This document shows positions 2,485 to 60,466 of a stretch of DNA of 64,000 nucleotides, in pieces. Below the pieces are notes generated by a model, which ran no database searches, had not been told where the DNA came from, and saw only the letters and a list, made by a program, of their open reading frames with translations. The translations under genes were made by a program, and so were the position numbers. Numbering within the stretch: the first letter of the stretch is position 1; every line of letters begins with the position of its first letter. This DNA is from Planctomycetota bacterium (GTDB taxonomy: Bacteria; Planctomycetota; PUPC01; DSUN01), in NCBI GenBank assembly GCA_041320515.1, contig JBGLNR010000001.1, positions 742,201 to 806,200 on the forward strand, in the 5' to 3' direction.

Positions 2485-2512
2485 CCGCCCGACACACCTT
2501 GGAGGCGATGGG

Positions 2513-3298
2513 ATGAAAGTCTACGTCTGCACCGATCTGGAAGGCATCAGCGGCGTGACGCACTGGGACCAGACGCGGGAGATGACGACCGCGGCCTACC
2601 AGCACGCCCGCCACCTGCTCACCCGCGAGGTCAACGCCTGCGTCCAGGGCTGCCTCGACGGCGGGGCGAGCGAAATCGTGGTGATGGACGGCCACGGCGG
2701 CGGGTTCAACTTCGTGCCCGACGAACTCCACCCTGGCGCCACTTACGTGACCGGCCCGAACCGCCCGGCCATGCTCCCCGGCCTCGACGCCTCGTTCGCC
2801 GCGGCGATGCTGCTCGGCTACCACGCCATGGCGGGCACCCCCCAGGCCGTCCTCGCCCACACCCAGTCGTCGAAGGCCGGCTGCCGCTACTGGTACAACG
2901 GCCGCGAGAGCGGCGAGATCGCCCAGAGCGCCCTCGTCTGCGGCCACTACGGCGTCCCAGTCGTCCTCGTCACGGGCGACGAGGCGACTTGTGCCGAGGC
3001 CACGGCATTCCTCGGCGAGGCAGTCGCCACCGTGGCCGTCAAGAAGGGCATCAGCATCACCTGCTGCGAAATGGTGCCGCCCCAGCGTGCGTGGGAGCTG
3101 GTCCGCAAGGGCGCCGCCGACGCCCTGGGCCGCATCGCCCAGTGCAAGCCCTACACCCTCGACCTGCCCATCCAGGCCCGCCTGAGCTACCTCACCGCCG
3201 AGATCGCCGACACCGCCGGCTGCCGCCTCTCCAAGCGCGTGGACGCCACGACCTACGAGCGCACCATCGAGTCCCCGCTCGACATCGTCCGGTTCTGA
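2513..3298 (+). CDS. M55 family metallopeptidase (DppA-like D-aminopeptidase)
   Basis: The MKVYVCTDLEGISGV N-terminus is characteristic of peptidase M55. Start moved to the internal ATG at 2513 of the listed 2477..3298 ORF. Confidence 0.85.
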   Translation: MKVYVCTDLEGISGVTHWDQTREMTTAAYQHARHLLTREVNACVQGCLDGGASEIVVMDGHGGGFNFVPDELHPGATYVTGPNRPAMLPGLDASFAAAMLLGYHAMAGTPQAVLAHTQSSKAGCRYWYNGRESGEIAQSALVCGHYGVPVVLVTGDEATCAEATAFLGEAVATVAVKKGISITCCEMVPPQRAWELVRKGAADALGRIAQCKPYTLDLPIQARLSYLTAEIADTAGCRLSKRVDATTYERTIESPLDIVRF

Positions 3299-3508
3299 GG
3301 CGTGATGCGTGGAACGTGAAACGTGATGCGTGAGAAGAGGAGGCCGGCCAGGCGCCCATCTTGTCCGGTTTGGTCGCCGCCGCCCGTGCCCTCCCCGCCC
3401 TCGCCGCCGCCTGGGCCGCCCGTCATACCCGCGACGACCACCAGCCCAACTGAGCACGAGCCGCCCCGCCCCTATCCGCACTCGCCACGAGTCCGAAGCA
3501 GTTGCGCA

Positions 3509-5269
3509 TCATCTCCCCGGAACTCCTCTAAGCGCCGATAACGCCTCAGCGACCTCTCTGCCCTTGGCCTCGATGATGTCCATCAGCTCTTCCGGGGTGT
3601 GCGTGTCCACGACCGGCCGCTTGTTGGGGTTGACGGCCTTGAGGTCGTAGACGGCATCCTCGATCTCCTTGGCCTTGGCGGCCAGGGTTCTCGCCTCGCG
3701 CGACAGTTCCTTGCTCTTGGCTTGGGCGGCCTCAATGGCCTTGGCGTCGCGCGGCTCGGCCTTCTTGAGGTCCGCGACGCGCTGCGACCACTGCGCGGCT
3801 TCCCTGCCCTTCGCCGCGCTCTGGTCCTTGAACGGCTGGGCCTCCTCGGCAGCGACCCGCTTCCGCTCGTCCATGTCCACGGTCCAGGACAATTCGCTGT
3901 CGGCGCGCGTGGGAAGCAACCGCAGAAAGTCCTCGAAGTGCTTGAGCGTCAGCGGCGTCTTCTTGCGCACCTTGATGTCCGTCAGATCGTAGTACCAGAT
4001 CTTCAGCGTCGGCTGGCCTTTGGTGAAGAACACCAGGTTCGTCTTGACTCCCGCGCCCGCCGCGGTGAAGACGCCGGCGGGCAGGCTGACGAGGCACCAC
4101 AGGTCGCAGTCGTCGAGCAATTTCCGCTTGGTCTTGACGAAGGCATCTTCGTTCGTGCGGAACAGAAGCCCCTCGTCTATCACGATCCCGCACCGGCCGC
4201 CCTCGCGCAGGCTGCGGATGACGTGCTGGAGGAAAAGCACCTGGGTCGCGCCGGTCTTGTAGTCGAAGTTGGTCTGGGCTTCCTTGCCCTCTTTACCGCC
4301 GAAGGGCGGGTTGGTGAGAATGACGTCGAAGAACTGTGGCGCGCCCTCGAACAGGCCGCCGTAGGTTTCCCGCCCGGTGAGCGTGTTGCCGTGCCAGAGG
4401 TTCGGCTTGTCAATGCCGTGGAGCACCAGGTTCGCCGCCGCGATCGGGTAGGCAAGGTCCTCCTTCTCACGGCCCCAGAAGGTGCGTTGCTTGAGGGTCT
4501 CCAATTGCTCGGCAGTGGCGTCGTTGCCGAGACGGGCCGTCATGTGCAAGTAGCTCTGCGCCAGGAACCCGCCCGTGCCACAGCATGGGTCGTACACGGT
4601 CTCATCCGCCCTGGGGTCAACGGCTTGGACCATCGCCTTGATGACCTGGCGGGGGGTGAAGAACTGGCCCCCGTCGTTGCCCTTCTCGCCCATCTTCAGC
4701 AGCAGTCCCTCGTAGACCTGCGAGAGCGTGAAAACGTGGGTCGGGTCTATCGCCTCGGTGGTGAGCTGGTCCACCTTGTCCAGCACGTCGAGGAAGTTCC
4801 GCTCGGTGTCTATGCGCACCCGCTCGACGCCGGTCATGATTTCGCTGATGACCTTCTGGCGCGGCGAGGCGTCGGGCAGGTTCTCCAACCCCTTCAGGTG
4901 CGGCAGCAGGTCCGTGTTGACGAAGTCGAAGAAGGCATTTTGCGGCGCGTTCTGAAGCTCGACCCGCTTGTTGGTCTGCCCCACCGGCAAGGTCTCCGGC
5001 GGCGCTGCCCAATCTCGCCAGCGGTAGGGCGCTTCCAGCGAGGGACGGAACGGCACGCCCAGCGCCTCAGACTCCTGTTCCTCGCGGCTTTCCTTCTCGT
5101 CGAGGATGCGCAGGAAGAGAATCCAGGTGAGTTCGGGCACATACTGCATCGCCCCGGCGCAGTTCCCCCGCCGCATGATGTCGCAGATGCTCTTGACCGC
5201 CTGATCCACCGATTGCTGGGTGGTGTGGCGCTTGCCGTTCCCATCGTTGTTCTTGCGTCCCCGCGCCAT
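3509..5269 (-). CDS. hsdM: type I restriction-modification N6-adenine DNA methyltransferase subunit M
   Basis: HsdM N-terminal domain pattern, motif I DPCCGTGGFL, motif IV NPPFGGKEG, and a coiled-coil C-terminal tail. Abuts hsdS. Confidence 0.95.
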   Translation of the reverse strand: MARGRKNNDGNGKRHTTQQSVDQAVKSICDIMRRGNCAGAMQYVPELTWILFLRILDEKESREEQESEALGVPFRPSLEAPYRWRDWAAPPETLPVGQTNKRVELQNAPQNAFFDFVNTDLLPHLKGLENLPDASPRQKVISEIMTGVERVRIDTERNFLDVLDKVDQLTTEAIDPTHVFTLSQVYEGLLLKMGEKGNDGGQFFTPRQVIKAMVQAVDPRADETVYDPCCGTGGFLAQSYLHMTARLGNDATAEQLETLKQRTFWGREKEDLAYPIAAANLVLHGIDKPNLWHGNTLTGRETYGGLFEGAPQFFDVILTNPPFGGKEGKEAQTNFDYKTGATQVLFLQHVIRSLREGGRCGIVIDEGLLFRTNEDAFVKTKRKLLDDCDLWCLVSLPAGVFTAAGAGVKTNLVFFTKGQPTLKIWYYDLTDIKVRKKTPLTLKHFEDFLRLLPTRADSELSWTVDMDERKRVAAEEAQPFKDQSAAKGREAAQWSQRVADLKKAEPRDAKAIEAAQAKSKELSREARTLAAKAKEIEDAVYDLKAVNPNKRPVVDTHTPEELMDIIEAKGREVAEALSALRGVPGR

Positions 5270-5270
5270 G

Positions 5271-5882
5271 TCATATCTCCCCGCTGAAGGCCCGGCGCAG
5301 CAGGGCCGCCGGCAGGGCGTTGATCGTGTTCAGTTCTTCTTCCGCCGCCGCGCGGGCCTTCTCCACCGCCGCCATCTGCTCGCGCAACAGCCCCGCAATC
5401 CGCCGCTGCTCGGAAAGGGGCGGGAGGGGGACATGCATCTGCAGAAAGCTGCCCATATCCGCCCTTGGCATTCGAGATCCCGTCTTGTCTTGCATGGCGA
5501 AATCAACCGTTTCGCGGCGCCTCAGTAGCCATGCCAAGAACTCCCTGTCAACATCGTCCAAGGGAAGCAATGGGATCATCTCTGTAGTGCAGCGCCCCGG
5601 AGCATCGGGTAACGCCACCTTGTTCAGGTATGGCCGCAACTTGCCATAGAGCACATGGCGTTCATCGAAGCGAAACGTCGTGCTTTTCCCCTCGTCCTCA
5701 ACGCGTTCTAGCGGCGACTTCAGAATGCGCCCTGTCTCAGCCTCTATGTGTTCGAGACTGTAATAGGCGAGCGCACCTGCCTCACTGGAGAACGACTCTA
5801 CAATCTGCCTGTCTTGTCTGCACACGTCACCCAACTTGACCCATCGCCAGCCGTCGGGCAGGGTTTCATTCGCGTGCTTCAT
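5271..5882 (-). CDS. hsdS: type I R-M specificity subunit S, half-size (single target-recognition domain)
   Basis: 203 aa: LPDGWRWVKLGDV start, one TRD, then the conserved helical region PLPPLSEQRRIAGLL...ALLRRAF. 4-nt overlap with dinD upstream and adjacent to hsdM. Confidence 0.85.
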   Translation of the reverse strand: MKHANETLPDGWRWVKLGDVCRQDRQIVESFSSEAGALAYYSLEHIEAETGRILKSPLERVEDEGKSTTFRFDERHVLYGKLRPYLNKVALPDAPGRCTTEMIPLLPLDDVDREFLAWLLRRRETVDFAMQDKTGSRMPRADMGSFLQMHVPLPPLSEQRRIAGLLREQMAAVEKARAAAEEELNTINALPAALLRRAFSGEI

Positions 5883-6768: not shown

Positions 6769-7854
6769 CTACGCGGCGAACATCCTGGTCTTGGTCTCGA
6801 TCAGCAGGTCGCGGGGGTTGCCGGCCATTTGCAGCGCGGCCAGGCCGCCGGCGGCTTTGACCTCCGGGGTCTGGAAGATCTGCGGGTTCTCCAGGCCGTC
6901 GGTGCCGCCGCGCTCGAACTGGCTGGCAATGGCCAGGATGGTGCCGGCGGCCTGGCCTGGCAGCGCGTTGATCCAGTCCTCGTGCTTGTAGGTGAAGGCC
7001 AACGTGCGGTCGTGGCGGGTGCGCGGGTTGATGCCCCAGCCGAGTTCGGCCAGCACGTCATAGAGGTCGTACTCTTCCTTCTCGTCCACCATAGTCTGGA
7101 CTTCTTGCACGAGACGCGCGGCGAGGCGGGCCTTGTAGTCCTCGATGGGCACGGGCATGGCCCGTCCGTCCACGTCGGCGACGATGAACCGGCCGGCGTC
7201 CGTAATGTGGACCTCGAAGCCCTCGACCATGAGGGTAGGCTCGGGTGGCACAGGGGCCGGAGGAGGTTGGGGGGATTCGCCTGGCTCGCGTGGGGGCTTG
7301 GAGATGAACTCTTCCCCGAATAGCCGGGTCGCATCTGTGTAGTCGTAGACGCGGAACATCAGCTTCTTCTCGGCGATGCGCGTGCCCCGCCCGACCATCT
7401 GGTAGAAGCTGATGGGGCTCTTGATATACCGGAAGAACACGATGTTCCGCACGCAGGGGACGTCAACGCCTGTGGTCAGGAGGTCCACCGTGGTGGCGAT
7501 GAAGTGGGAGCGGGACGAGGCGCGGAGATCGGGGAGCTGGTCGTTGCCGCTGCTGGCGGCGGTACACTTGAAGGCGTAGGAGTCGAGCCGCGGCTTGCCC
7601 TGCATGTCGCACCACTGGGCGTAGAGGTTGTTCATGCAGGCGGCCACGTCGTCGGCGTGGCGGTCGCGGGCGCAGAAAATGATGGACTTCTGCTCCGGGC
7701 CACCGGTCTCCAGCAGATAGCCGAACAGGTCATGGCACATGGCCAGCACGCGGTCCGGCAGGAGGATTCGGTCCTCAAACTGGTATTTCTCATAGAGGTC
7801 ATCAATCTGCTGGGGCGTGAGGGGCAGGCCCGTGATGGCGTCCACCGGGTTGCG
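6769..7854 (-). pseudogene. hsdR: type I restriction enzyme R subunit, C-terminal half only (helicase lobe 2 + EcoEI-R-type C-terminal domain)
   Basis: Helicase motifs V/VI (TTGVDVPCVRNIVFF, QMVGRGTRI) and a C-terminal R-subunit tail are present. The nuclease domain and the Walker A/DEAD lobe are absent. It reads in frame out of the heparinase-like sequence upstream. Confidence 0.8.
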
Positions 7855-9735
7855 GGCGGGCACGCGGTCGAGGACCGAGGCGCAGGGGCCGTCGCCGACC
7901 AGCACTTCGGTCTTGGGCGCGGCAGCCACTGTGAAATGGGTGGTGACGGTCTTGCCGGGGAACTGGACGCGAATGGGGCCGTCGGTGGAGCCGGCCTTGA
8001 GGTTCTGGAGGTACTCCGTGCCGACGAACTTGTCGGGGGCCTTGCCCGGCTCCTTCGCGGCGTCGCACTCGATGCCCGTGCCGCGGTTGTGGTAGACCCA
8101 GTCGAAGCGGTGCGGCTTCTCGGAGGCCAACTGGTCCACGACGAGCAGATAGGTCGGGGTCATGACGAGCAGGCGTGTGTGCTTGACGCCGGGATAGGCG
8201 GCGTCGCAACTGGCGGCCGCGGCGGCATACTCCTCGTTGGCGGCGAAGAGTTCCAGCTTGCCGCTGGCCGGCCGTTGGGGAAGCTTGTCCACGAGGACGG
8301 CGTTGTGGCTGAGCGTGGGCTTGTACCAGTTGCGGTGGATGGGGAGACGGTATGCCTGCGATGCGGCGCGGCCGGGGTCAACGCCCAGCTCCTCCTTGTG
8401 GCCGAAGAGGACGAAGGAGAGCTTGTCGAAGTGGCCGTGGAAGCCTCCGTAGGGTCCGAAGGTGAAGGCGGCGGTGAGGCCGGCCTCGCCCTTGGTGCGC
8501 AGGATGGCATGGCCCGCGCTGCGGAAGACCCTGCTTGTGAGGACCGGCGGCTCAGCCGTCACGCCCGTGTCGCGGCCGAACATCACGGATTGCCAGTGGG
8601 GCGCCGCCGGCAGGAGGGGCAGAAGCTCGGGGTCCTTCGTGGCGGCGTAGGCGTATTCCATCAGCCAGGCGGAGCCGCGGGCCGAGGCCCGCACGTCGTC
8701 GCCGAAGCGGGGCAGCGAGCCGTCGCTCATCGTGTAGTGGACCGGGAGGGTGAACATCTTCCGCAGCGTGGGATGGCTCCACAGGTCAATGCCAAGCCGC
8801 CGGGCGTATTCGGCGATGAGGGTCATGGCGTGGAGCGTGTAGAAGTGATAGCCCCAACTGTTCTCGTACCACATCCCTTCGTCGGACACGGAGACCTTCA
8901 TCTGCTCGGCGAAGCCGCAGTGGGGCTGGGCGATGGCCTTCTCGACCCAGGCCACGTCGCCCAGGACGGCTCCGCCCGCGATCATGCCCGCGTTGTGCCA
9001 GGTCTGCCAGTTGCCCTGGCCGCCCTTGTGCTTGTCCATGTTCTTGAGCATCGGGATGAGCAGGCCGTCGCGGATGGCCGCGCGGTCGGCGTCGGTGAGC
9101 GCCTCCCAGATGAGGTCGCACGCCGGCGCGATGTCGCTGGCCAGGCTCGCCGCCTCGTTGAGGGTCTGCTCGAAGAGGTGGCCGCCGGAGACGATGGTCC
9201 ACGGGCTGGGGCTGCGGCTCGCCGAGTGGTAGGGATACTTCAGGTAGCGCTCGGCGTAGCCGAGGAGCACCTTGGCCGCGAACTCCGCGTAGCGCTTCTC
9301 GCCCGTGAGGGCATAGGCCCAGGCGGCGTTCGAGGCGTTGCGGATGTTCGCGTAGTGCTGGTGCTCGTAGACCACGTCGTCGTACGGCTCGCCCGTGTAG
9401 ACCGTCTTGCAGCGGGGGCACTCGTGGTGGGTGTCGTCAATCGTCCTGAGGGCGAACTGGCATTTGTCGCACTGATACCACTGGTTGTGCTGTCCGCCGC
9501 GCGGCGGGAAGGCGATGGGCTTGGCGAGCGCGTCGTCGGCCTGCTTCACGACGCGCGCCACGGCGTCGTGGGCCGGCCCCGTGGCCTTGAGGGCCGCCCG
9601 CAGCCGACCCAACTCCTCGGGCGTGGCCGCGATGGCGGGGTACTTCAGGTCTTTGGGCAGTTGAACCGCCGGCGCCTTCCACTCTTCGGCGGCAGCCAGG
9701 GCGGTCACGAGGCCCAGGATCGCCAGCAGGCTCAT
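7855..9735 (-). CDS. heparinase II/III-like (alginate-lyase fold) secreted protein, 3'-truncated and fused to the hsdR remnant
   Basis: Signal peptide MSLLAILGLVTALAAA after an AAGGAGG SD (ATG at 9735). Zinc-ribbon insert CDKC...CPRC. Heparinase-type patterns (GGHLFEQT, HFDKLSF, LSHNAVLVD). The sequence stops matching at ...VLDRVPA, about 7855. Confidence 0.8.
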
Positions 9736-53801: not shown

Positions 53802-55331
53802 GTGGAACATGGCGGGCCATTGCCAGTGAGAGCGCTCCTCCTTTCTGCCCCCTTCGTGCCCGAGTACATGCGGAATGCCCGCTGCGACTTCGTGTCGCTC
53901 TCGGCCACGCAATGGTATCCCATTCTCCTCGGCTACTGCGGCGCGTGGCTCGAGGCCCAAGGCCACGCGGTCAAGCTGGTGGATGCTCCCGCCCACTACC
54001 TGGACCACGAGGCCACGCGGCGGATCGTCCGCGAGTTCCGCCCCGATCTGCTCGTGCTATACACCGGCCGCCTGAGCGAGCAGAACGACCTGGATTTCGC
54101 CGAGCCGCTCGTCGAGGAGCTGGGCTGCGACGCCGTGATCGTCGGCCCCTTCGCCTCGATTGGCCCCGAGGCCACGCTCTCGAAGGCCCGCGTCATCACC
54201 AAACTCGTCGTCGGCCAGTTCGAGCACCCCGTGGCCGAACTGGCCGCGGGGCGCCCCCACGCCGAAGTGCGCAATCTGGTGTATAGGACAAGTGCCTCGC
54301 CCTCCCAACCCCTCTCCCTTCCAGGGAGAGGGCAGGGTGAGGGTTGGGGTCTGGGACTGCACGGGCCCCAACCCTCCCCCCACCCCCTCCCTGAGAGGGA
54401 GGGGGGTGATGCTATCGTCCGCAACCCAGTCCGCCCCTATCTCACGACTGAGGAGCTGGACGCCATTCCCTTCGTCTCGCGCTTCCTGGCGAGCCAGGTG
54501 GACCTCCGGCGCTACAAGACGCCCTCCGAGCTGTTCCCCTACATGGACCTCCTGACCGGCCGCGGCTGCTGCTACGGCCACTGCACGTATTGCCTCTGGG
54601 TCCACACCTACGTCTGCGGCACGAACTACAGCGTCCGCTCGATTGGCAACGTGATCGAGGAGTTCCGCTTCATCGACCGCGAGCTGCCGCACGTGCGCTC
54701 GGTGATGATTCAGGACGACACGTTTCCCGAGGCCCGCGCCCGCGAGTTCAGCGAGGCGAAGCTCGCGGCGGGCCTTCGCCTCCCCTGGTCGTGCTACGCC
54801 CGCGGCAACATGGGCCTCGACGTGCTCAAGCTGATGAAGCGGGCCGGCTGCCGCAACCTGCACGTCGGCTACGAATCGGGCGACCCCGAGGTGCTCCAGC
54901 GCATCAAGAAAGGCGTCACGGTCGAGCGCATGACGGAGTTCACCGACGACGCCAAGCGGGCCGGCCTGCGCATCCACGGCGACTTCGCCGTCGGCTTCCC
55001 GGGCGAGACGCCTGAGTCGTTCGAGAAGACCATCGCCTGGGCGAAACGGCTCGACCCCTACACCGCTCAGTTCCAGCTCATGATCCCCTTTCCCGGCACG
55101 CCCTATCATGACATGATGAAGGAGCAGGGGTGGCTGAACGCGCGGGGCGAGCCCGACATGCCGCAGTTCCCGAACGAGCGGATTCGCGCGATGGCGAAGC
55201 GGGCCTACCGCCGCTTCTACCTCACGCCCCGCTACCTGTGGAAGTGCCTCTGCCACCCCTACGACCGCGTGCTACTGCGGCTGAAGACCATGGTGCGGGC
55301 CATTCCCGCCATGTTCTGGCGACGTTGGTGA
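53802..55331 (+). CDS. B12-binding-domain radical SAM enzyme carrying an in-frame REP-like insertion
   Basis: Cluster motif GRGCCYGHCTYCLW. Residues ...[37 protein letters not shown]... are encoded by the type A repeat at 54297..54408. Confidence 0.9.
   Translation: MEHGGPLPVRALLLSAPFVPEYMRNARCDFVSLSATQWYPILLGYCGAWLEAQGHAVKLVDAPAHYLDHEATRRIVREFRPDLLVLYTGRLSEQNDLDFAEPLVEELGCDAVIVGPFASIGPEATLSKARVITKLVVGQFEHPVAELAAGRPHAEVRNLVYRTSASPSQPLSLPGRGQGEGWGLGLHGPQPSPHPLPEREGGDAIVRNPVRPYLTTEELDAIPFVSRFLASQVDLRRYKTPSELFPYMDLLTGRGCCYGHCTYCLWVHTYVCGTNYSVRSIGNVIEEFRFIDRELPHVRSVMIQDDTFPEARAREFSEAKLAAGLRLPWSCYARGNMGLDVLKLMKRAGCRNLHVGYESGDPEVLQRIKKGVTVERMTEFTDDAKRAGLRIHGDFAVGFPGETPESFEKTIAWAKRLDPYTAQFQLMIPFPGTPYHDMMKEQGWLNARGEPDMPQFPNERIRAMAKRAYRRFYLTPRYLWKCLCHPYDRVLLRLKTMVRAIPAMFWRRW
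54297..54408. repeat. type A double-hairpin REP-like element inside a CDS
   Basis: CCCCTCTCCCTTCCAGGGAGAGGG ... CCCTCCCTGAGAGGGAGGGG. Hairpin order is swapped relative to the copy at 24731. Confidence 0.9.
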
Positions 55332-55416
55332 GGAGTGTGTGGTGACGGATTTGCGCGGCTGGGCACACTAGAAACCAAACCCAGCGGTCGGCGGACTCTA
55401 CGTCCAGGGCCGCCAC

Positions 55417-56172
55417 GTGGACCCCTGGGGCTACACGTGGGAGAACATCGCCGAAGGCATGGACGCCTATCCCGCCGTCCACAACGTCCCGACGCGGGCG
55501 GACGTTCACACGCTCAAGGCGCCCGAGGTCCACGACGGCATGCCCCACGGCTTCATGTACATGCGCCTCTTCTACCTGCGCGGCTTCGAGGAGCTGATGG
55601 TGGACTTCGCCGAGGAGCCGCCCGAACTCCAAATGCTCATTGACATCGTGCTCGACTACAACGTGAAGGAACTCGAGTACAAGATCGAGCAAATGAAGCC
55701 TGGCGAGAAGATGGTGTACTTCGGCGACGACCTCGGGATGCAGCACGCGTTGCCGATGGGGCCGTACAAGTGGCGGAAGTACCTCAAGCCCTGCTTCATG
55801 AAGCTCTACCGCCGCTGCAAAGAGGTCGGCTGGTGGGTCTACATGCACACCGACGGCCATTGCTGGGAGATCATCCCCGACCTCAAGGAATGCGGCGTAG
55901 ACGTCATCAACCCCCAGTTCCGCGCGAACGGCCTCGACAACCTGGTCCTCACCTGCAAGGGGAGCATCTGCGTGAGCCTGGACCTCGACCGGCAGATGAT
56001 GCCCTTCGTCGGCCCTGCGGAGCTTGACGCCCACATCCGCGAGTGCGTCTCGCGGCTCGGCGCGCCGGAGGGCGGGCTGTGGATCAGTGCCGAGGTCGGC
56101 CCCGACGTCCCCCTCGAGAACGTCGAGGCCATCTGCGCCGCCCTCGAGGAGTACCGCGCCTACTTCCGCTGA
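55417..56172 (+). CDS. uroporphyrinogen-decarboxylase (URO-D/MtaA-like) family protein, probably 5'-truncated
   Basis: GTG start per the ORF track. The frame is open and coding-like back to a TAG at 55368 with no earlier start. URO-D-like C-terminal two-thirds (VYFGDDLGMQ, MHTDGH, VINPQ). Family members are usually about 330-360 aa. Confidence 0.6.
   Translation: MDPWGYTWENIAEGMDAYPAVHNVPTRADVHTLKAPEVHDGMPHGFMYMRLFYLRGFEELMVDFAEEPPELQMLIDIVLDYNVKELEYKIEQMKPGEKMVYFGDDLGMQHALPMGPYKWRKYLKPCFMKLYRRCKEVGWWVYMHTDGHCWEIIPDLKECGVDVINPQFRANGLDNLVLTCKGSICVSLDLDRQMMPFVGPAELDAHIRECVSRLGAPEGGLWISAEVGPDVPLENVEAICAALEEYRAYFR
56080..56172. repeat. direct repeat copy 1 (native 3' end of the URO-D-like gene)
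   Basis: TGGATCAGTGCCGAGGTCGGCCCCGACGTCCCCCTCGAGAACGTCGAGGCCATCTGCGCCGCCCTCG... recurs at 56823. Confidence 0.9.
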
Positions 56173-56483: not shown

Positions 56484-56690
56484 TCAGAGCCGCCCCTCCT
56501 TCTTCAGGCCCGCGCGAATGTCGGCATATGGCCGGAAGCTGCCCCCTGCGCGCACCGCCTCGTCGAGTGCCAGGGCGTCCTCCAGCTCCTCCACGTGGCG
56601 GAGCAGGCGGCGGTAGGCCCGCACGTCCAGCATCACCGCCGTGGGCCGCCCGTCCCCGGCGACCACGTACCGCTCTTTCAGATCGATCAT
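56484..56690 (-). CDS. Phd/YefM-family antitoxin
   Basis: MIDLKERYVVAGDGRPTAVMLDVRAYRRLLRHVEELEDALAL is a typical Phd/YefM fold sequence. Confidence 0.8.
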   Translation of the reverse strand: MIDLKERYVVAGDGRPTAVMLDVRAYRRLLRHVEELEDALALDEAVRAGGSFRPYADIRAGLKKEGRL

Positions 56691-56822
56691 CGCTCACGCC
56701 TCCTGCGGCAACTCGCCAAGCTCCGCCACGTTAGCTACGCGTCGTCAAGCCCCTTGTCGCTCCACATCCCTATCATACGGCCCTGCCCTTTCCGCCACAA
56801 GCCGCTTGTTCACAGCGGCCCC

Positions 56823-56915
56823 TGGATCAGCGCCGAGGTCGGCCCCGACGTCCCCCTCGAAGACGTCGAGGCCATCTGCGCCGCCCTCGGAAGACACCAA
56901 GCCTACTTCAGATGA
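56823..56915. repeat. direct repeat copy 2 (displaced duplicate of the URO-D-like 3' end, including a stop)
   Basis: 67 nt with 3 mismatches to 56080..56146, then a diverged tail encoding ...GRHQAYFR* versus ...EEYRAYFR*. Confidence 0.9.
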
Positions 56916-57100
56916 TCACCACCCATGCTCTGGTGCAGCCGTTGAGGGGGCCTATTCGAGCTGGCCGCTTCGGGAAGCGGCCAGCTCGAGGCACTCCCGC
57001 ACCAGTTGACAACGGGACGCGCAACGAATAGAGTGGGCGTGTATGGCAGGCTAGGGTACGGGCGTTGTGGAATCGCGCTTTGGGGCCACGGGGTAGCCGG

Positions 57101-58573
57101 ATGAAGTTCCTCATCGACACGAATGTCTTCATACCCCTTGAACCTGCCGGTGAATCGGACATCCAAGCCCGTACGACAGGGGCCGTCGAGCTTGCGCGCC
57201 TCGTCGCCATGGCCAGGGGCCAACTGTATGTGCATCCGGCGCAGCGCGAGGATATCGAGCGCGACCGCAACGAAGAGCGGCTGAGACTGAGAAGGATGCT
57301 CTTTGGCAAGTACCCGTGTCTCCCAATGCCCCCCGCCATCTCGCCCGAGTTGGAGGCCAAGGTCGGCCATGCCGAGCCGGGGTCGAATGATTGGGTGGAC
57401 CACCAGCTACTGGCGGGTCTTCACGCCGATGCCGTAGACTTCCTCGTCACGGACGACCTCCGGCTTCGCAAGAAAGCCGGCCGGCTCGGACTGGGAAGGC
57501 GTGTTGCCTCAGTTGCTGAGGCGGTCTCCATTGTCAGCGACCTCTTCGACACTGTGCCGGCTCCTCCTCCGGCAGTGCAGAGCGTCAAGGCATACTGCCT
57601 CAACCAGACGGACCCGATCTTCGATGGCCTGCGGAAGGACTACCCCGGTTTCGATAGCTGGCTTGCCAAGTGTAAGCGAGAGCACAGGCAGGCGTGGATG
57701 ATCAGTGTGACAGGAACGACCGGGCTGGCCGCCGTTTCCATCGTCAAGTCAGAGGGTTCCGTCAGTTTCCTGCCAGGTGTGAAGGTCCTGAAAGTCTGCA
57801 GTTTCAAGGTCTCCGAACGATGCAACGGCTTCCGTTTCGGCGAATTGCTTCTCAAGGCGATCTTCACCTACGCGGAAGACAACGGGTACGATTGGCTCTA
57901 CGTGACAGTGTTCGAGAAGTACCCGTCGCTGCTCTCGTTCCTACAGGAGTTCGGTTTCGAGGCAGTAGATCATAGGACCGAGTTGGGCGAGAGCTGCTTG
58001 GCAAAGCCAATGCGGTTCACACAGGCCGAATTCAGCGCCCTCGCGCCTCTGGCGTTCAATATCCGGTTTGGCCCGTCTGCCGCCAGGTTCGTCGGGGCCC
58101 CCACGTTCGTAGTGCCGATTCTGCCCATGTACCACTCGGTGCTCTTCCCCGAAGCAGAGAAGCAGCTTGAGCTGATGCCGGGCGTTCATCCGTGCGGGAA
58201 TAGCATCAGGAAGGCTTACCTCTCCAGGGGGCCGATACGGACGATCACCCCAGGCGCGAACCTGCTCTTCTATCGCTCGGAGGACAAACAGCACGTCGTG
58301 ATGACAGGCGTCGCAGAGGACACGCTCGTATCGTCCTCCCCTGAAGTCATCGCGAGGTACGTGGGCAAGCGCACTGTCTACACCTATGACGAGATCCGTC
58401 GAATGTGTCAGCGCGACGTGCTGGCCATCTTGTTCAGGCAGTCCCGCACTATTCGGACCCCGATTCGCCTGGACGAGCTTCGAGCCTGTGGTGTCCTCTC
58501 CGCCGCTCCGCAGTCCATCGTCACCGTGCCTGAGGAGGCAAAGGAATGGCTTCAGACCCGGGTGCTAGGGTAG
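57101..58573 (+). CDS. PIN domain - GNAT acetyltransferase - ASCH/PUA-like domain fusion protein (490 aa)
   Basis: - PIN: MKFLIDTNVFIPLEP ... DFLVTDD.
- GNAT: ...KVCSFKVSERCNGFRFGELLLKAIFTYAEDNGYDWLYVTVFE...LQEFGFE.
- C-terminal about 170 aa is colinear with the downstream ASCH protein (VPILP.../...PQSIVTV versus LPIRP.../...PQSFAYL).
- Visibly lower GC than the flanks. Confidence 0.75.
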   Translation: MKFLIDTNVFIPLEPAGESDIQARTTGAVELARLVAMARGQLYVHPAQREDIERDRNEERLRLRRMLFGKYPCLPMPPAISPELEAKVGHAEPGSNDWVDHQLLAGLHADAVDFLVTDDLRLRKKAGRLGLGRRVASVAEAVSIVSDLFDTVPAPPPAVQSVKAYCLNQTDPIFDGLRKDYPGFDSWLAKCKREHRQAWMISVTGTTGLAAVSIVKSEGSVSFLPGVKVLKVCSFKVSERCNGFRFGELLLKAIFTYAEDNGYDWLYVTVFEKYPSLLSFLQEFGFEAVDHRTELGESCLAKPMRFTQAEFSALAPLAFNIRFGPSAARFVGAPTFVVPILPMYHSVLFPEAEKQLELMPGVHPCGNSIRKAYLSRGPIRTITPGANLLFYRSEDKQHVVMTGVAEDTLVSSSPEVIARYVGKRTVYTYDEIRRMCQRDVLAILFRQSRTIRTPIRLDELRACGVLSAAPQSIVTVPEEAKEWLQTRVLG

Positions 58574-59001
58574 CTCTGTTACCCATTCGCCCCAGATTCG
58601 CCCGTTCAATCATGAGTGGTCAGAAAAAGGTCGAGTTCCGCAAAGTCAGGTTCAGGAGGAATGTCTCGCACGTCGTTGTCTATGCCAGTAGCCCCGTCAA
58701 GCGGGTGCTTGGCTACTTTCATGTAGCTGAGATACATGAAGCACCGCCGGCGGTTCTGTGGGCTCGCTACGCAGATGTAGGCGGGCTGGACCGCGACGAG
58801 TTCTGGGCCTATTACGCGTCCACGGGCGAGGGCGTGGCAATTGGCATCGGAGAAGTAAGAGGCCTAGTCGAGCCGCTGCCCCTCAGCACACTCGGCTCCC
58901 GGATGCGGGCACCACAGAGCTTCGCGTATCTCGCCGATGGGGCGTTCAACAAGCTCCTTGACCGCCTGCAACGCCGCGCGGGGGCGGGCCATAGCCCATA
59001 G
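58546..59001 (+). CDS. ASCH-domain (PUA-like fold) protein
   Basis: 151 aa. LLPIRPRFARSIMSGQKKVEFRK... is a typical ASCH N-terminus. 28-nt overlap with the upstream gene. Confidence 0.7.
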   Translation: MASDPGARVALLPIRPRFARSIMSGQKKVEFRKVRFRRNVSHVVVYASSPVKRVLGYFHVAEIHEAPPAVLWARYADVGGLDRDEFWAYYASTGEGVAIGIGEVRGLVEPLPLSTLGSRMRAPQSFAYLADGAFNKLLDRLQRRAGAGHSP

Positions 59002-59134: not shown

Positions 59135-60466
59135 TCAGGTAGCCGTGTCCAGCACGGTCGCGCCTTCCTTCAGCGGGAATGCGCAGTAGGTGGCCTTGCC
59201 CTCGACGAGGTAGGTGCCGCTGCGGAAGTCGCGGCGGGAGGCGACTTGGCGGAGGTCGGCGCCGCCCACCTTGACCCCCTTTGCCACGCAATCGTCGAGC
59301 TTGAGGGTGAAGTTCGCCGTGGGGAACTTGGTGGTGATGGTGACCCGGTCGTGTGGCACAGGCGCCCCCGCCTGTGCATCCACAGCCGAGGGCGGCTGTG
59401 CCACATGCCCCACAGCCGGGGCGGCTGTGCTACACGCAATGTCGGACAGTTCGCGGGCCATCCAGTAGTGGCCGATCTCGGAGTTCTTCATCCAGAGGGT
59501 CTTCGTCTTGTCGGGGTCGTAGGCATCGAGGCGGCGCTTGACGGTCTTGAGGACGCCGAAGCCGAATTCCTCGCCCTCGAAGTAGAAGCCGGGCCAGTGG
59601 CCGCAGAGGACGCAGGGGAGTTCCTTCTCGAGGACGGCGGGCAGGCGCCCGCCCTTGAGGTCCTCGGTGATGAAGCGGTCGGGGTCGCCCTTGTCGAAGC
59701 CTGTCCACGAGCCGAACCAGTCGCCGGCGCAGGCCCAGACGCTGGCGATGGCGATGCCCTTGTCCTTCTGCACGTGCCAGAGGGGGACGCTCGGGGGCTT
59801 CTTGTCGTCGAGCCACAGGAAGTAGAATGGCCGCGGGTTGTTGTTCACGCGGAGCGCGGCGTCGAGGATGGCCTTCGAGTAGGCCGCCTCCTTTTTCTTG
59901 CCGAATGCGCCGGGGCTGGTGACGCCCTCGCAGGGGATGCCGGCGTTCTTGAGAAGCTGCATCGCCGTGGCGATGTAGTCGGTGAGCGGCTCGACGGGCG
60001 GGTCGTACCACTCGACTTGCTCCCACTGGTTCGTGAGCGTCATCGTCTTGATGTCCACGACGTGCGAGTGGGTGAGCATTTCGGGCGTGAGGTCGAAGTT
60101 GGGCCAGATGATCTCTTTCGTGAGCTTCAGCCAGTCGGTGAGCAGGTGGCGCGGGTGGTCGGGGAAGCCCTGGTCAACTCGCCCCTGGCCGGCGGGGAAG
60201 GGGACGAATGAGAACTTGCCGCGAATGCCCTGCTCGCCGCACCACTCGCCCCACTTCTTCGCGAAGTCCACGGGGATGGTGCGGGAGAGCTTGGGCACGA
60301 TGGGATTGCCCTCCCAGCGGGCCGGCGGCAGGTCGGGGCGGTGCTTCGGCCGCCAGGCGAGCCATTGTTGCATCCAGTAGTAGGTCAGGTTGATGACGGG
60401 GCACGAGTCGTCAATGATCAGCGACAGGGGCGTGCGAAGGAGGGGGTTGCAGACGGTGGCGTTCAT
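59135..60466 (-). CDS. conserved hypothetical protein (possible carbohydrate-active/deacetylase-like fold) with an in-frame triple-hairpin insertion
   Basis: 443-aa ORF with good GC3 bias. Residues ...STAAPAVGHVAQPPSAVDAQAGAPVPHD... are encoded by the type B repeats at 59353..59436. Function not recognised. Confidence 0.6.
   Translation of the reverse strand: MNATVCNPLLRTPLSLIIDDSCPVINLTYYWMQQWLAWRPKHRPDLPPARWEGNPIVPKLSRTIPVDFAKKWGEWCGEQGIRGKFSFVPFPAGQGRVDQGFPDHPRHLLTDWLKLTKEIIWPNFDLTPEMLTHSHVVDIKTMTLTNQWEQVEWYDPPVEPLTDYIATAMQLLKNAGIPCEGVTSPGAFGKKKEAAYSKAILDAALRVNNNPRPFYFLWLDDKKPPSVPLWHVQKDKGIAIASVWACAGDWFGSWTGFDKGDPDRFITEDLKGGRLPAVLEKELPCVLCGHWPGFYFEGEEFGFGVLKTVKRRLDAYDPDKTKTLWMKNSEIGHYWMARELSDIACSTAAPAVGHVAQPPSAVDAQAGAPVPHDRVTITTKFPTANFTLKLDDCVAKGVKVGGADLRQVASRRDFRSGTYLVEGKATYCAFPLKEGATVLDTAT
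59353..59436. repeat. three consecutive type B hairpins (CACAGGCG-N5-CGCCTGTG, CACAGCCG-N4-CGGCTGTG, CACAGCCG-N3-CGGCTGTG)
   Basis: The same hairpin family occurs at 19955..20030, 23518..23556 and 49597..49627. 63544..63615 is a related long inverted repeat. Confidence 0.9.

Follow-up and report, generated by a model that had tools for sequence, protein, structure and literature searches.

A pair of overlapping genes was analysed in a stretch of 64,000 nucleotides (nt; hereafter the window) from a contig of a Planctomycetota bacterium (JBGLNR010000001.1, positions 742,201 to 806,200). Gene 1 was found to encode a fusion of PIN-like, GNAT-like and PUA-like domains and gene 2 a stand-alone ASCH protein, and both matched a catalogued candidate anti-phage system, PDC-M11. 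The open reading frame (ORF) of gene 1 has possible starts at 57065 (TTG) and 57101 (ATG) and ends at 58573 on the forward strand; since MKFLIDTN was the conserved N-terminus in 41 aligned homologues, the ATG at 57101 is considered the real start. Gene 2 lies on the same strand and shares 28 nt with gene 1 (58546–58573). A preliminary description of the locus, made by a model from the letters of the sequence, had claimed two overlapping genes in a translationally coupled layout, and the ORF table agrees with this. All motifs quoted there were also found, namely DTNV (aa 6–9), FLVTDD (aa 114–119), GFRFGELLLKAI, FGFE and the layout VPILP...PQSI in gene 1, and the layout LPIRP...PQSF in gene 2. 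The features of the locus are listed in Table 1.

Table 1. Features of the gene pair and of the region directly upstream, in positions of the window
Feature	Position	Strand	Description
Phd/YefM-like orphan antitoxin	56484–56690	-	E 6e-6
Sigma-70-like promoter candidate	57006–57034	+	TTGACA-17 nt-TAGAGT, 67 nt upstream of the gene 1 ATG; consensus match only
Gene 1	57101–58573	+	490 aa; PIN-like/GNAT-like/PUA-like fusion, PADLOC PDC-M11A; putative effector or toxin
PIN-like nuclease domain	57101–57565	+	aa 1–155; conserved acidic residues; PIN_3 in relatives; weak fold matches; PIN_15/PIN_17 of Matelska et al.
GNAT-fold domain	57578–58060	+	about aa 160–320; atypical motif A N-G243-F-R245-F-G247; Acetyltransf_1 in relatives, Foldseek, PDB profile
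C-terminal PUA-like (ASCH/EVE-type) domain	58073–58570	+	about aa 325–490; without the ASCH Lys/Glu dyad; putative reader/targeting module
Shine-Dalgarno sequence of gene 2	58531–58537	+	GAGGAGG, within the 3′ part of the gene 1 coding sequence, 8 nt ahead of the ATG; read directly
Gene 2	58546–59001	+	151 aa; stand-alone ASCH protein, PADLOC PDC-M11B, ZmASCH/GevA homologue; putative antidote

Comparison with PADLOC-DB showed that gene 1 matched the PDC-M11A profile (PDLC04421) with residues 1–488 against profile positions 1–484 of 486 (E 7.8e-173) and that gene 2 matched PDC-M11B (PDLC04424) over its full length (E 1.7e-41), the two genes standing in the expected A-then-B order. By these matches the pair is a new instance of the already catalogued PDC-M11, from which it shows no structural difference. 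PDC-M11 is itself a candidate only, without a published phenotype, and in the searchable literature it was found only as a match in an Escherichia coli O157:H7 genome. The module had been presented as undescribed, which does not hold: besides the name given in PADLOC, the operon type has been described computationally in two papers (PMC5499597; PMC7641849). Matelska et al. (2017) reported PIN_15 and PIN_17 proteins fused to GNAT-like and PUA-like domains (PMC5499597), and Bell, Koonin and colleagues (2020; hereafter Bell et al.) described “(PIN)-GNAT-EVE” operons with an ASCH partner, of which the PIN form accompanies restriction–modification (RM) systems of type I and the PIN-less form occurs in prophages (PMC7641849). 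A toxin–antitoxin reading was proposed there, with the statement that none of the modules had been experimentally characterised (PMC7641849). Both papers credit Iyer, Aravind and colleagues (2013) with the first description, and as cited in PMC5499597 that work considered a possible nucleic-acid acetylation system.

The window pair has in common with these published operons the PIN-GNAT-PUA-like fusion, a second PUA-like/ASCH protein in the operon, the sporadic distribution and the want of a canonical motif A. It differs from them in that adjacent type I RM genes, an AAA_17 ATPase and a helix-turn-helix (HTH) fusion on the ASCH protein are all missing from the window, and in that its C-terminal domain is closer by fold to ZmASCH, an ASCH protein of Zymomonas mobilis, than to EVE, for which the Pfam match is marginal. 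By itself, the window contributes one further example of this cassette, from a high-GC metagenome-assembled genome (MAG), and the cassette had been listed as a candidate defence system before. New in this analysis are the universal ASCH partner with its usual overlap of 25–34 nt, the catalytic triad that is kept in gene 2 but lost in the fused copy, and the atypical GNAT motif A.

When the window protein was searched alone, Pfam gave a GNAT match to gene 1 below its cut-off (E 0.009) and no PIN match. Among 41 full-length gene 1 homologues, Acetyltransf_1 matched all 41 (best E 5.5e-9) and PIN_3 matched nine (best E 8.9e-7). An AlphaFold2 model of full-length gene 1 had a predicted local distance difference test score (pLDDT) of 88.3 and a predicted template-modelling score (pTM) of 0.75. 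The GNAT part of this model resembled PaiA, NatD, TacT1, AtaT2 and many other GNATs in Foldseek (E 1e-5 to 1e-7), and a profile of the domain retrieved PaiA from the PDB (E 9.5e-5). When motif A was aligned to that of Naa50 (R-G-I-G-I-G), the gene 1 family was shown to read x-G243-F-R245-F-G247. This loop and the core residues K231, K236, E248 and F284-G285-F286 were strictly conserved in the family.

For the N-terminal domain, the best Foldseek matches of its model (pLDDT 85) were all PIN-like: VapC15, VapC4, VapC11, PAE2754, SMG6 and HARP/PRORP. D6, D100 and D119 were invariant both in the 41 homologues and in 20 aligned N-terminal domains, E14 was invariant in the 20 domains and at least 90% conserved in the 41 full-length homologues, and D51 and D55 were nearly invariant. 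The T117-x-D119 motif comes after strand 4, as it does in VapC-type PINs. The C-terminal domain had ZmASCH (5guq/5gus) as its best Foldseek match (E 4e-7, template-modelling score (TM) 0.73–0.77), and EVE matches to it in Pfam were weak (6 of the 41 family members, best E 0.0026); no meaningful match was obtained when its sequence profile was compared with the PDB. An 11-residue insert in this domain bears the family signature GN[SA][IL]RKAYL. The PIN, GNAT and C-terminal PUA/ASCH-like assignments proposed in the preliminary description are thus borne out by Pfam in the relatives, by Foldseek and by the conserved residues, the PIN matches being weak, and the same is true of gene 2 as a stand-alone ASCH protein, as shown by its match to ZmASCH (5gus; E 8e-13 over 135 residues).

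With Pfam alone, gene 2 of the window gave an ASCH match with an E-value of 0.012. Its octapeptide G25-x-K27-x-x-E30-x-R32 fits the G-x-K-x-x-[E/T]-x-R pattern of ASCH amidohydrolases of the YqfB/TthASCH type, and K27, E30, R32, Y46, W72, Y89 and Q124 were invariant among 29 gene 2 relatives, including ZmASCH and the phage protein GevA described below. In other ASCH proteins, the Lys and the Glu/Thr of the octapeptide are needed to hydrolyse N4-acetylcytidine (ac4C) in tRNA (literature on YqfB/TthASCH-type proteins). ZmASCH (5GUQ/5GUS) is the closest solved homologue of gene 2, with which it shares G-x-K-x-x-E-x-R, Tyr47, Lys53 and Ser128. It was reported to cleave single-stranded RNA (ssRNA) in vitro with Mg2+ and to remove ac4C from tRNA in vitro (literature on ZmASCH). 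ZmASCH differs from gene 2 in having been studied as an isolated protein; on plasmids, ZmASCH-like genes adjoin GNAT fusion genes.

The two PUA-like copies of the module were compared with each other. BLASTP of the C-terminal domain of gene 1 against gene 2 gave nothing (E 22). Alignment of the two family profiles with hhalign gave a probability of 63% (E 6.9e-5, 132 columns), and in this alignment the columns of the catalytic Lys and Glu vary freely in the gene 1 family, where only Q355 is fixed. Since the copy in gene 1 lacks the catalytic residues that gene 2 has, the fused copy appears to serve for binding (a reader) and the free copy keeps a hydrolase-type pocket. Gene 2 had been called paralogous to the C-terminal domain of gene 1; profile–profile and fold comparison support this as a remote relationship only, whereas BLASTP does not. 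The two ASCH domains had also been taken together as “reader or eraser”, and they have to be separated, because gene 2 keeps the catalytic Lys/Glu/Arg but the C-terminal domain of gene 1 does not.

Full-length homologues of gene 1, about 490 aa in length, numbered more than 1100, and at E ≤ 1e-30 the 1.84 billion representative proteins that were searched contained only 595 clusters of its family. When 185,579 species-representative genomes were scanned, 171 relatives were obtained, corresponding to about 0.1% of the genomes, and 80 of the 171 loci were analysed. These 80 loci span about 20 phylum-level lineages, including Chloroflexota, Planctomycetota, Actinomycetota, Verrucomicrobiota, Desulfobacterota, Acidobacteriota and Armatimonadota, but also Myxococcota, Gemmatimonadota, Spirochaetota, Bacteroidota, Cyanobacteria, Nitrospirota and Omnitrophota. 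Besides, relatives of gene 1 were found on rhizobial, actinobacterial and haloarchaeal plasmids, where they adjoin ZmASCH-like genes. On alphaproteobacterial plasmids (Ensifer, Rhizobium and Azospirillum), an ASCH or HTH-ASCH gene was located upstream of the PIN-GNAT-PUA gene, so that the order is reversed compared to the window and the 80 genome loci.

In all of the 77 complete loci, i.e., those not cut by a contig end, gene 1 was followed by an ASCH partner, and in 76 of them a gene 2 homologue was found directly downstream. The exception, a locus in a Planctomycetaceae MAG (L066), contains a different ASCH protein (7383–7913, forward strand; PF04266, E 8e-7) with the octapeptide GSKIWELR, which overlaps the end of gene 1 in the same position as the usual gene 2. 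To judge from its sequence, this is a non-orthologous replacement of the partner by another ASCH protein. Of 82 loci, 46 had an overlap of 28 nt between the two genes, 17 of 34 nt, seven of 31 nt and four of 25 nt, and in 74 it was between 25 and 34 nt. The flanking genes were varied, the 265 ORFs matching over 130 Pfam families per side. Among these ORFs, none recurred as a conserved third gene, although the crude ORF calling could miss weak associations. Type I RM subunits were the commonest neighbours, some Fic, integrase and Schlafen/AlbA_2 proteins were also present, and one locus sits inside an HsdR-AbiE-HsdM-HsdS operon. The evidence is in favour of a cassette that is autonomous, moves horizontally and requires its two products to be made jointly. 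The comparative results, in particular the universal ASCH partner with a single non-orthologous replacement and a GNAT loop that is atypical yet strictly conserved, sharpen the experimental target.

Two relatives of the pair were found in viral sequences. The archaeal Methanothermobacter provirus psiM100 contains a complete PIN-GNAT-PUA and ASCH pair, ORFD and ORF5 (2501–3979 and 3957–4346 of the retrieved locus), which overlap by 23 nt; ORF5 and gene 2 share 33% identity. The larger part of ORFD falls inside the annotated “inserted fragment IFa” that distinguishes psiM100 from psiM2, and ORF5 is annotated as common to psiM2. In Escherichia phage PhiR47_2 (PV340567.1), a PIN-less pair located directly after cI (3956–5384 of the retrieved locus L010; 23-nt overlap) was deposited in GenBank as “GevT toxin” and “GevA antitoxin”. 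GevA showed 40% identity to gene 2 (E 1e-31), GevT aligned to residues 167–456 of gene 1, which comprise the GNAT and PUA-like domains (25% identity, E 1e-18), and both proteins matched the PDC-M11 hidden Markov models of PADLOC. GevTA has in common with the window pair that both partners are homologous, that the gene order is the same and that the overlap is short; it differs in that GevT has no PIN domain and in that GevTA is borne by a lambdoid prophage, directly after cI, whereas the window pair is chromosomal in a high-GC MAG. Among 5426 complete E. coli genomes, 275, O157:H7 strains included, contained GevTA DNA with at least 99% identity. The names given by PGAP to the two products in E. 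coli genomes are “hypothetical protein” and “ASCH domain-containing protein”.

The type II toxins of the GNAT family (TacT, AtaT and ItaT) resemble gene 1 in their GNAT fold, TacT1 (7ak8) and AtaT2 (7f37) being matched at an E-value of about 2e-5 in Foldseek, and in that a toxin role is proposed for both. These toxins have a single domain, a length of about 170 aa and a canonical acetyl-CoA loop, and their DNA-binding (ribbon-helix-helix) antitoxin is encoded upstream, whereas in the window the GNAT domain forms the middle of a 490-aa fusion, has an atypical motif A and is followed by a downstream ASCH partner. A VapBC-type arrangement was also looked for, and no cognate antitoxin gene was found directly upstream on the strand of gene 1.

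Because of the PADLOC match and the association with RM neighbours, the location of the PIN-less form after cI, the depositor's labels and the known toxin roles of PIN and GNAT domains, we favour the reading that the pair is a horizontally spread, self-contained, toxin–antitoxin-like defence cassette, in which gene 1 would be the effector and gene 2 the antidote (probability roughly 0.6). Phage lambda carries rexAB directly after cI. The preliminary description had also proposed a mobile module of toxin or defence type, and this fits the matches to PDC-M11, the sporadic distribution over about 20 phyla as well as plasmids and proviruses, the RM neighbours and the deposition of a relative as GevT/GevA. 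The assignment of toxin and antidote was adopted from that GenBank label, and gene 1 is accordingly spoken of as a putative toxin only; the toxicity and the anti-phage activity are both predicted. According to the mechanism that we propose, the PUA-like domain of gene 1, having no ASCH catalytic residues, would dock the protein on nucleic acid, possibly modified and most plausibly tRNA or another RNA, and damage to this target would come from the GNAT-fold domain, the PIN nuclease or both. For gene 2, the conserved overlap and a strong ribosome-binding site of its own would keep synthesis in a constant ratio to gene 1. Gene 2 would restrain gene 1 in uninfected cells, either by hydrolysing an acyl mark with its Lys/Glu/Arg pocket or by occupying the effector itself or the substrate that both share.

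Several observations weigh against this reading. The toxin and antitoxin labels are a depositor's annotation of a PIN-less relative, and no experimental study of the family, including GevT/GevA, was found in the searchable literature. RM genes adjoin only about 10% of the surveyed loci, and no other defence genes were found near the window locus. The PIN fold matches were statistically weak (Foldseek E 0.03–0.1, TM 0.5–0.58) and comparison of the N-terminal domain profile with the PDB retrieved no PIN, so the PIN call draws on Pfam in the relatives, weak fold matches and the conserved acidic residues. The GNAT motif A has an invariant Arg in place of the central Gly and its first Q/R is not conserved (canonical Q/R-x-x-G-x-G/A), and Matelska et al. 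consider the GNAT-like domain degenerate and probably inactive (PMC5499597). Of the GNAT “writer” claimed earlier, the fold therefore stands but the writer role is uncertain. Furthermore, ZmASCH showed no activity on free ac4C, and tRNA ac4C was not lowered by it in vivo (literature on ZmASCH); because of these limits of its deacetylase activity and its cleavage of ssRNA, gene 2 could be a nuclease itself and not an eraser.

A more specific version of the cassette, a writer–eraser toxin–antitoxin on nucleic acid in which the GNAT domain would N-acylate and the ASCH protein of gene 2 would be a catalytic acyl-eraser antitoxin, is a tentative proposal that we consider rather doubtful. The GNAT-fold domain, led by the dead PUA-like reader, would N-acylate a base in tRNA or another RNA, possibly in DNA, and the PIN domain may then cut the marked molecule. 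Gene 2 would remove the acyl group in the manner of DarG, and on phage infection the balance would shift in favour of the mark. In DarTG, the gene order is toxin, then partner; the toxin writes a mark on nucleic acid and a hydrolase domain of the antitoxin removes this mark. The resemblance is a functional analogy only, without homology (DarT belongs to the ADP-ribosyltransferases and DarG to the macrodomain proteins), and the writer–eraser chemistry of the window pair is hypothetical. An eraser role of gene 2 is favoured by the invariant Lys/Glu/Arg triad and by the one locus with a non-orthologous ASCH replacement; it is disfavoured by the atypical GNAT loop, by the poor deacetylase activity of ZmASCH outside the in vitro tRNA assay and by the cleavage of ssRNA by ZmASCH. 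If the writer–eraser version were true, the pair would be the first acetylation-based nucleic-acid toxin–antitoxin with an eraser antitoxin and would give a physiological role to the deacetylase activity of bacterial ASCH proteins. It would also tie RNA acetylation chemistry to phage defence. A PIN-less form is present in about 5% of complete E. coli genomes.

It is unlikely that the pair is instead an accessory of modification-dependent restriction, in which both PUA-like domains would read modified bases in phage DNA, as EVE, SRA and YTH domains do in type IV enzymes, and would act together with a PIN-like nuclease. The GNAT-like domain would then be a degenerate structural or regulatory spacer, and gene 2 would bind DNA as a specificity factor or operon regulator. 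Bell et al. describe fusions of ASCH with HTH domains and with HsdS as well as its repeated occurrence together with type I RM, and they argue for binding of modified DNA by ASCH in such operons (PMC7641849). Type I RM subunits also ranked first among the neighbours in the present survey, and neighbours of the plasmid homologues are annotated as HTH-domain proteins. Homologues of gene 2 are named “predicted transcriptional regulator” by several sources, but gene 2 has no HTH domain and its hydrolase-type Lys/Glu/Arg triad is invariant. The atypical motif A, called degenerate in PMC5499597, would agree with a spacer, whereas the strong conservation of K231, K236, E248 and F284-G285-F286 in the GNAT core would not be expected of a mere spacer. 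As regards the nuclease, VapC-type PIN domains are typically RNases (general literature), and the existence of PIN-less GNAT-PUA and ASCH pairs that are labelled toxin–antitoxin shows that it is dispensable for the core role.

An exchange of the two roles, with gene 2 as a toxic ssRNA-cleaving ASCH RNase like ZmASCH and gene 1 as its regulator, sensor or neutraliser, is considered quite improbable. The degradation of ssRNA in vitro with Mg2+ by ZmASCH, the closest solved homologue (E 8e-13), argues for it, as does the presence in gene 2 of the functional residues Tyr47, Lys53 and Ser128 of ZmASCH, of which only the Tyr column (Y46) is invariant across the 29 sequences. The GenBank depositors, however, label the ASCH partner as the antitoxin, and a large, three-domain and highly conserved protein would be an unusual antitoxin. 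A GNAT/HTH pair of Acinetobacter baumannii that works opposite to expectation (quoted in PMC5499597) is a precedent for the exchange. The non-orthologous ASCH protein in the Planctomycetaceae MAG is more in keeping with a generic antidote, enzymatic or binding, than with a specialised toxin. A vertically inherited housekeeping or stress pair, consisting of an acetyl writer and eraser on tRNA or rRNA without a conflict function, is effectively excluded by the sporadic distribution, since the family was detected in only about 0.1% of the species-representative genomes, with occurrences dispersed among about 20 phyla (595 clusters among 1.84 billion representative proteins). ASCH proteins can remove ac4C from tRNA, and the GNAT fold resembles in Foldseek, among many GNATs, the acetyltransferase domains of TmcA and NAT10, but the helicase and tRNA-binding domains of these two proteins are absent from the window pair. 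The occurrence of the pair on plasmids and in proviruses, the GC dip in the window and the varying genomic contexts also argue against such a pair.

The GC content was 0.57–0.62 over positions 57500–59000 compared to 0.64–0.72 in the flanks, and this measured dip agrees with the lower GC of the module that was noted in the preliminary description. Upstream of the module, a 101-nt direct repeat (56072–56172 and 56815–56915, 84% identical) was detected, which copies the 3′ end of a URO-D-like gene (55417–56172). The repeat brackets a 642-nt segment whose only recognisable gene is the Phd/YefM-like orphan antitoxin listed in Table 1, and no toxin ORF was found adjoining this antitoxin. The arrangement resembles the scar of an integration that hit the 3′ end of the URO-D-like gene and supplied a replacement 3′ end. 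The two-gene module is located just outside the bracketed segment, so that of the earlier statement that the module sits beside a toxin–antitoxin remnant and an insertion footprint, the adjacency of both stands, whereas the module is not inside the segment. The orphan antitoxin was considered as a partner of the PIN domain and was rejected, as it lies on the opposite strand, 410 nt away, and is not conserved upstream in other loci. The candidate promoter of gene 1 matched the consensus at 10 of 12 positions and was the sole promoter-like match between 56100 and 59300 (0.3 expected from shuffled sequences). Between the duplicated URO-D 3′ end and this promoter-like site, a perfect 16-bp inverted repeat with a 2-nt spacer was found (56956–56989; TCGAGCTGGCCGCTTC/GAAGCGGCCAGCTCGA). 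Since this hairpin has no T-tract, it could represent the stem of a displaced terminator or else an operator.

The neighbours of the pair in the window are a radical SAM protein, the URO-D-like protein, the orphan antitoxin and a 443-aa protein of unknown function. No phage genes, Rfam families or tRNA genes were found near the locus. On the forward strand upstream (53802–56172), a B12-binding radical SAM protein of 509 aa is followed by the short URO-D-family protein (251 aa), which covers the C-terminal half of the URO-D profile only; these two genes may be a methyltransferase-type pair unrelated to the finding. Downstream, the convergent gene on the reverse strand (59135–60466) encodes the 443-aa protein, which had no Pfam match. 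The closest homologue of this protein (83% identity, from a Planctomycetes MAG) was used for an empty-site comparison, and its neighbours are entirely different, so that the comparison is silent on insertion. More than 700 homologues of the 443-aa protein (E ≤ 1e-30) were found in MAGs of Planctomycetes, Armatimonadetes, Poribacteria and Verrucomicrobia, with 60–83% identity among the 120 best listed, and by these matches it belongs to a widespread uncharacterised family. The closest relative of the 443-aa gene was found to adjoin a MazE/PIN pair.

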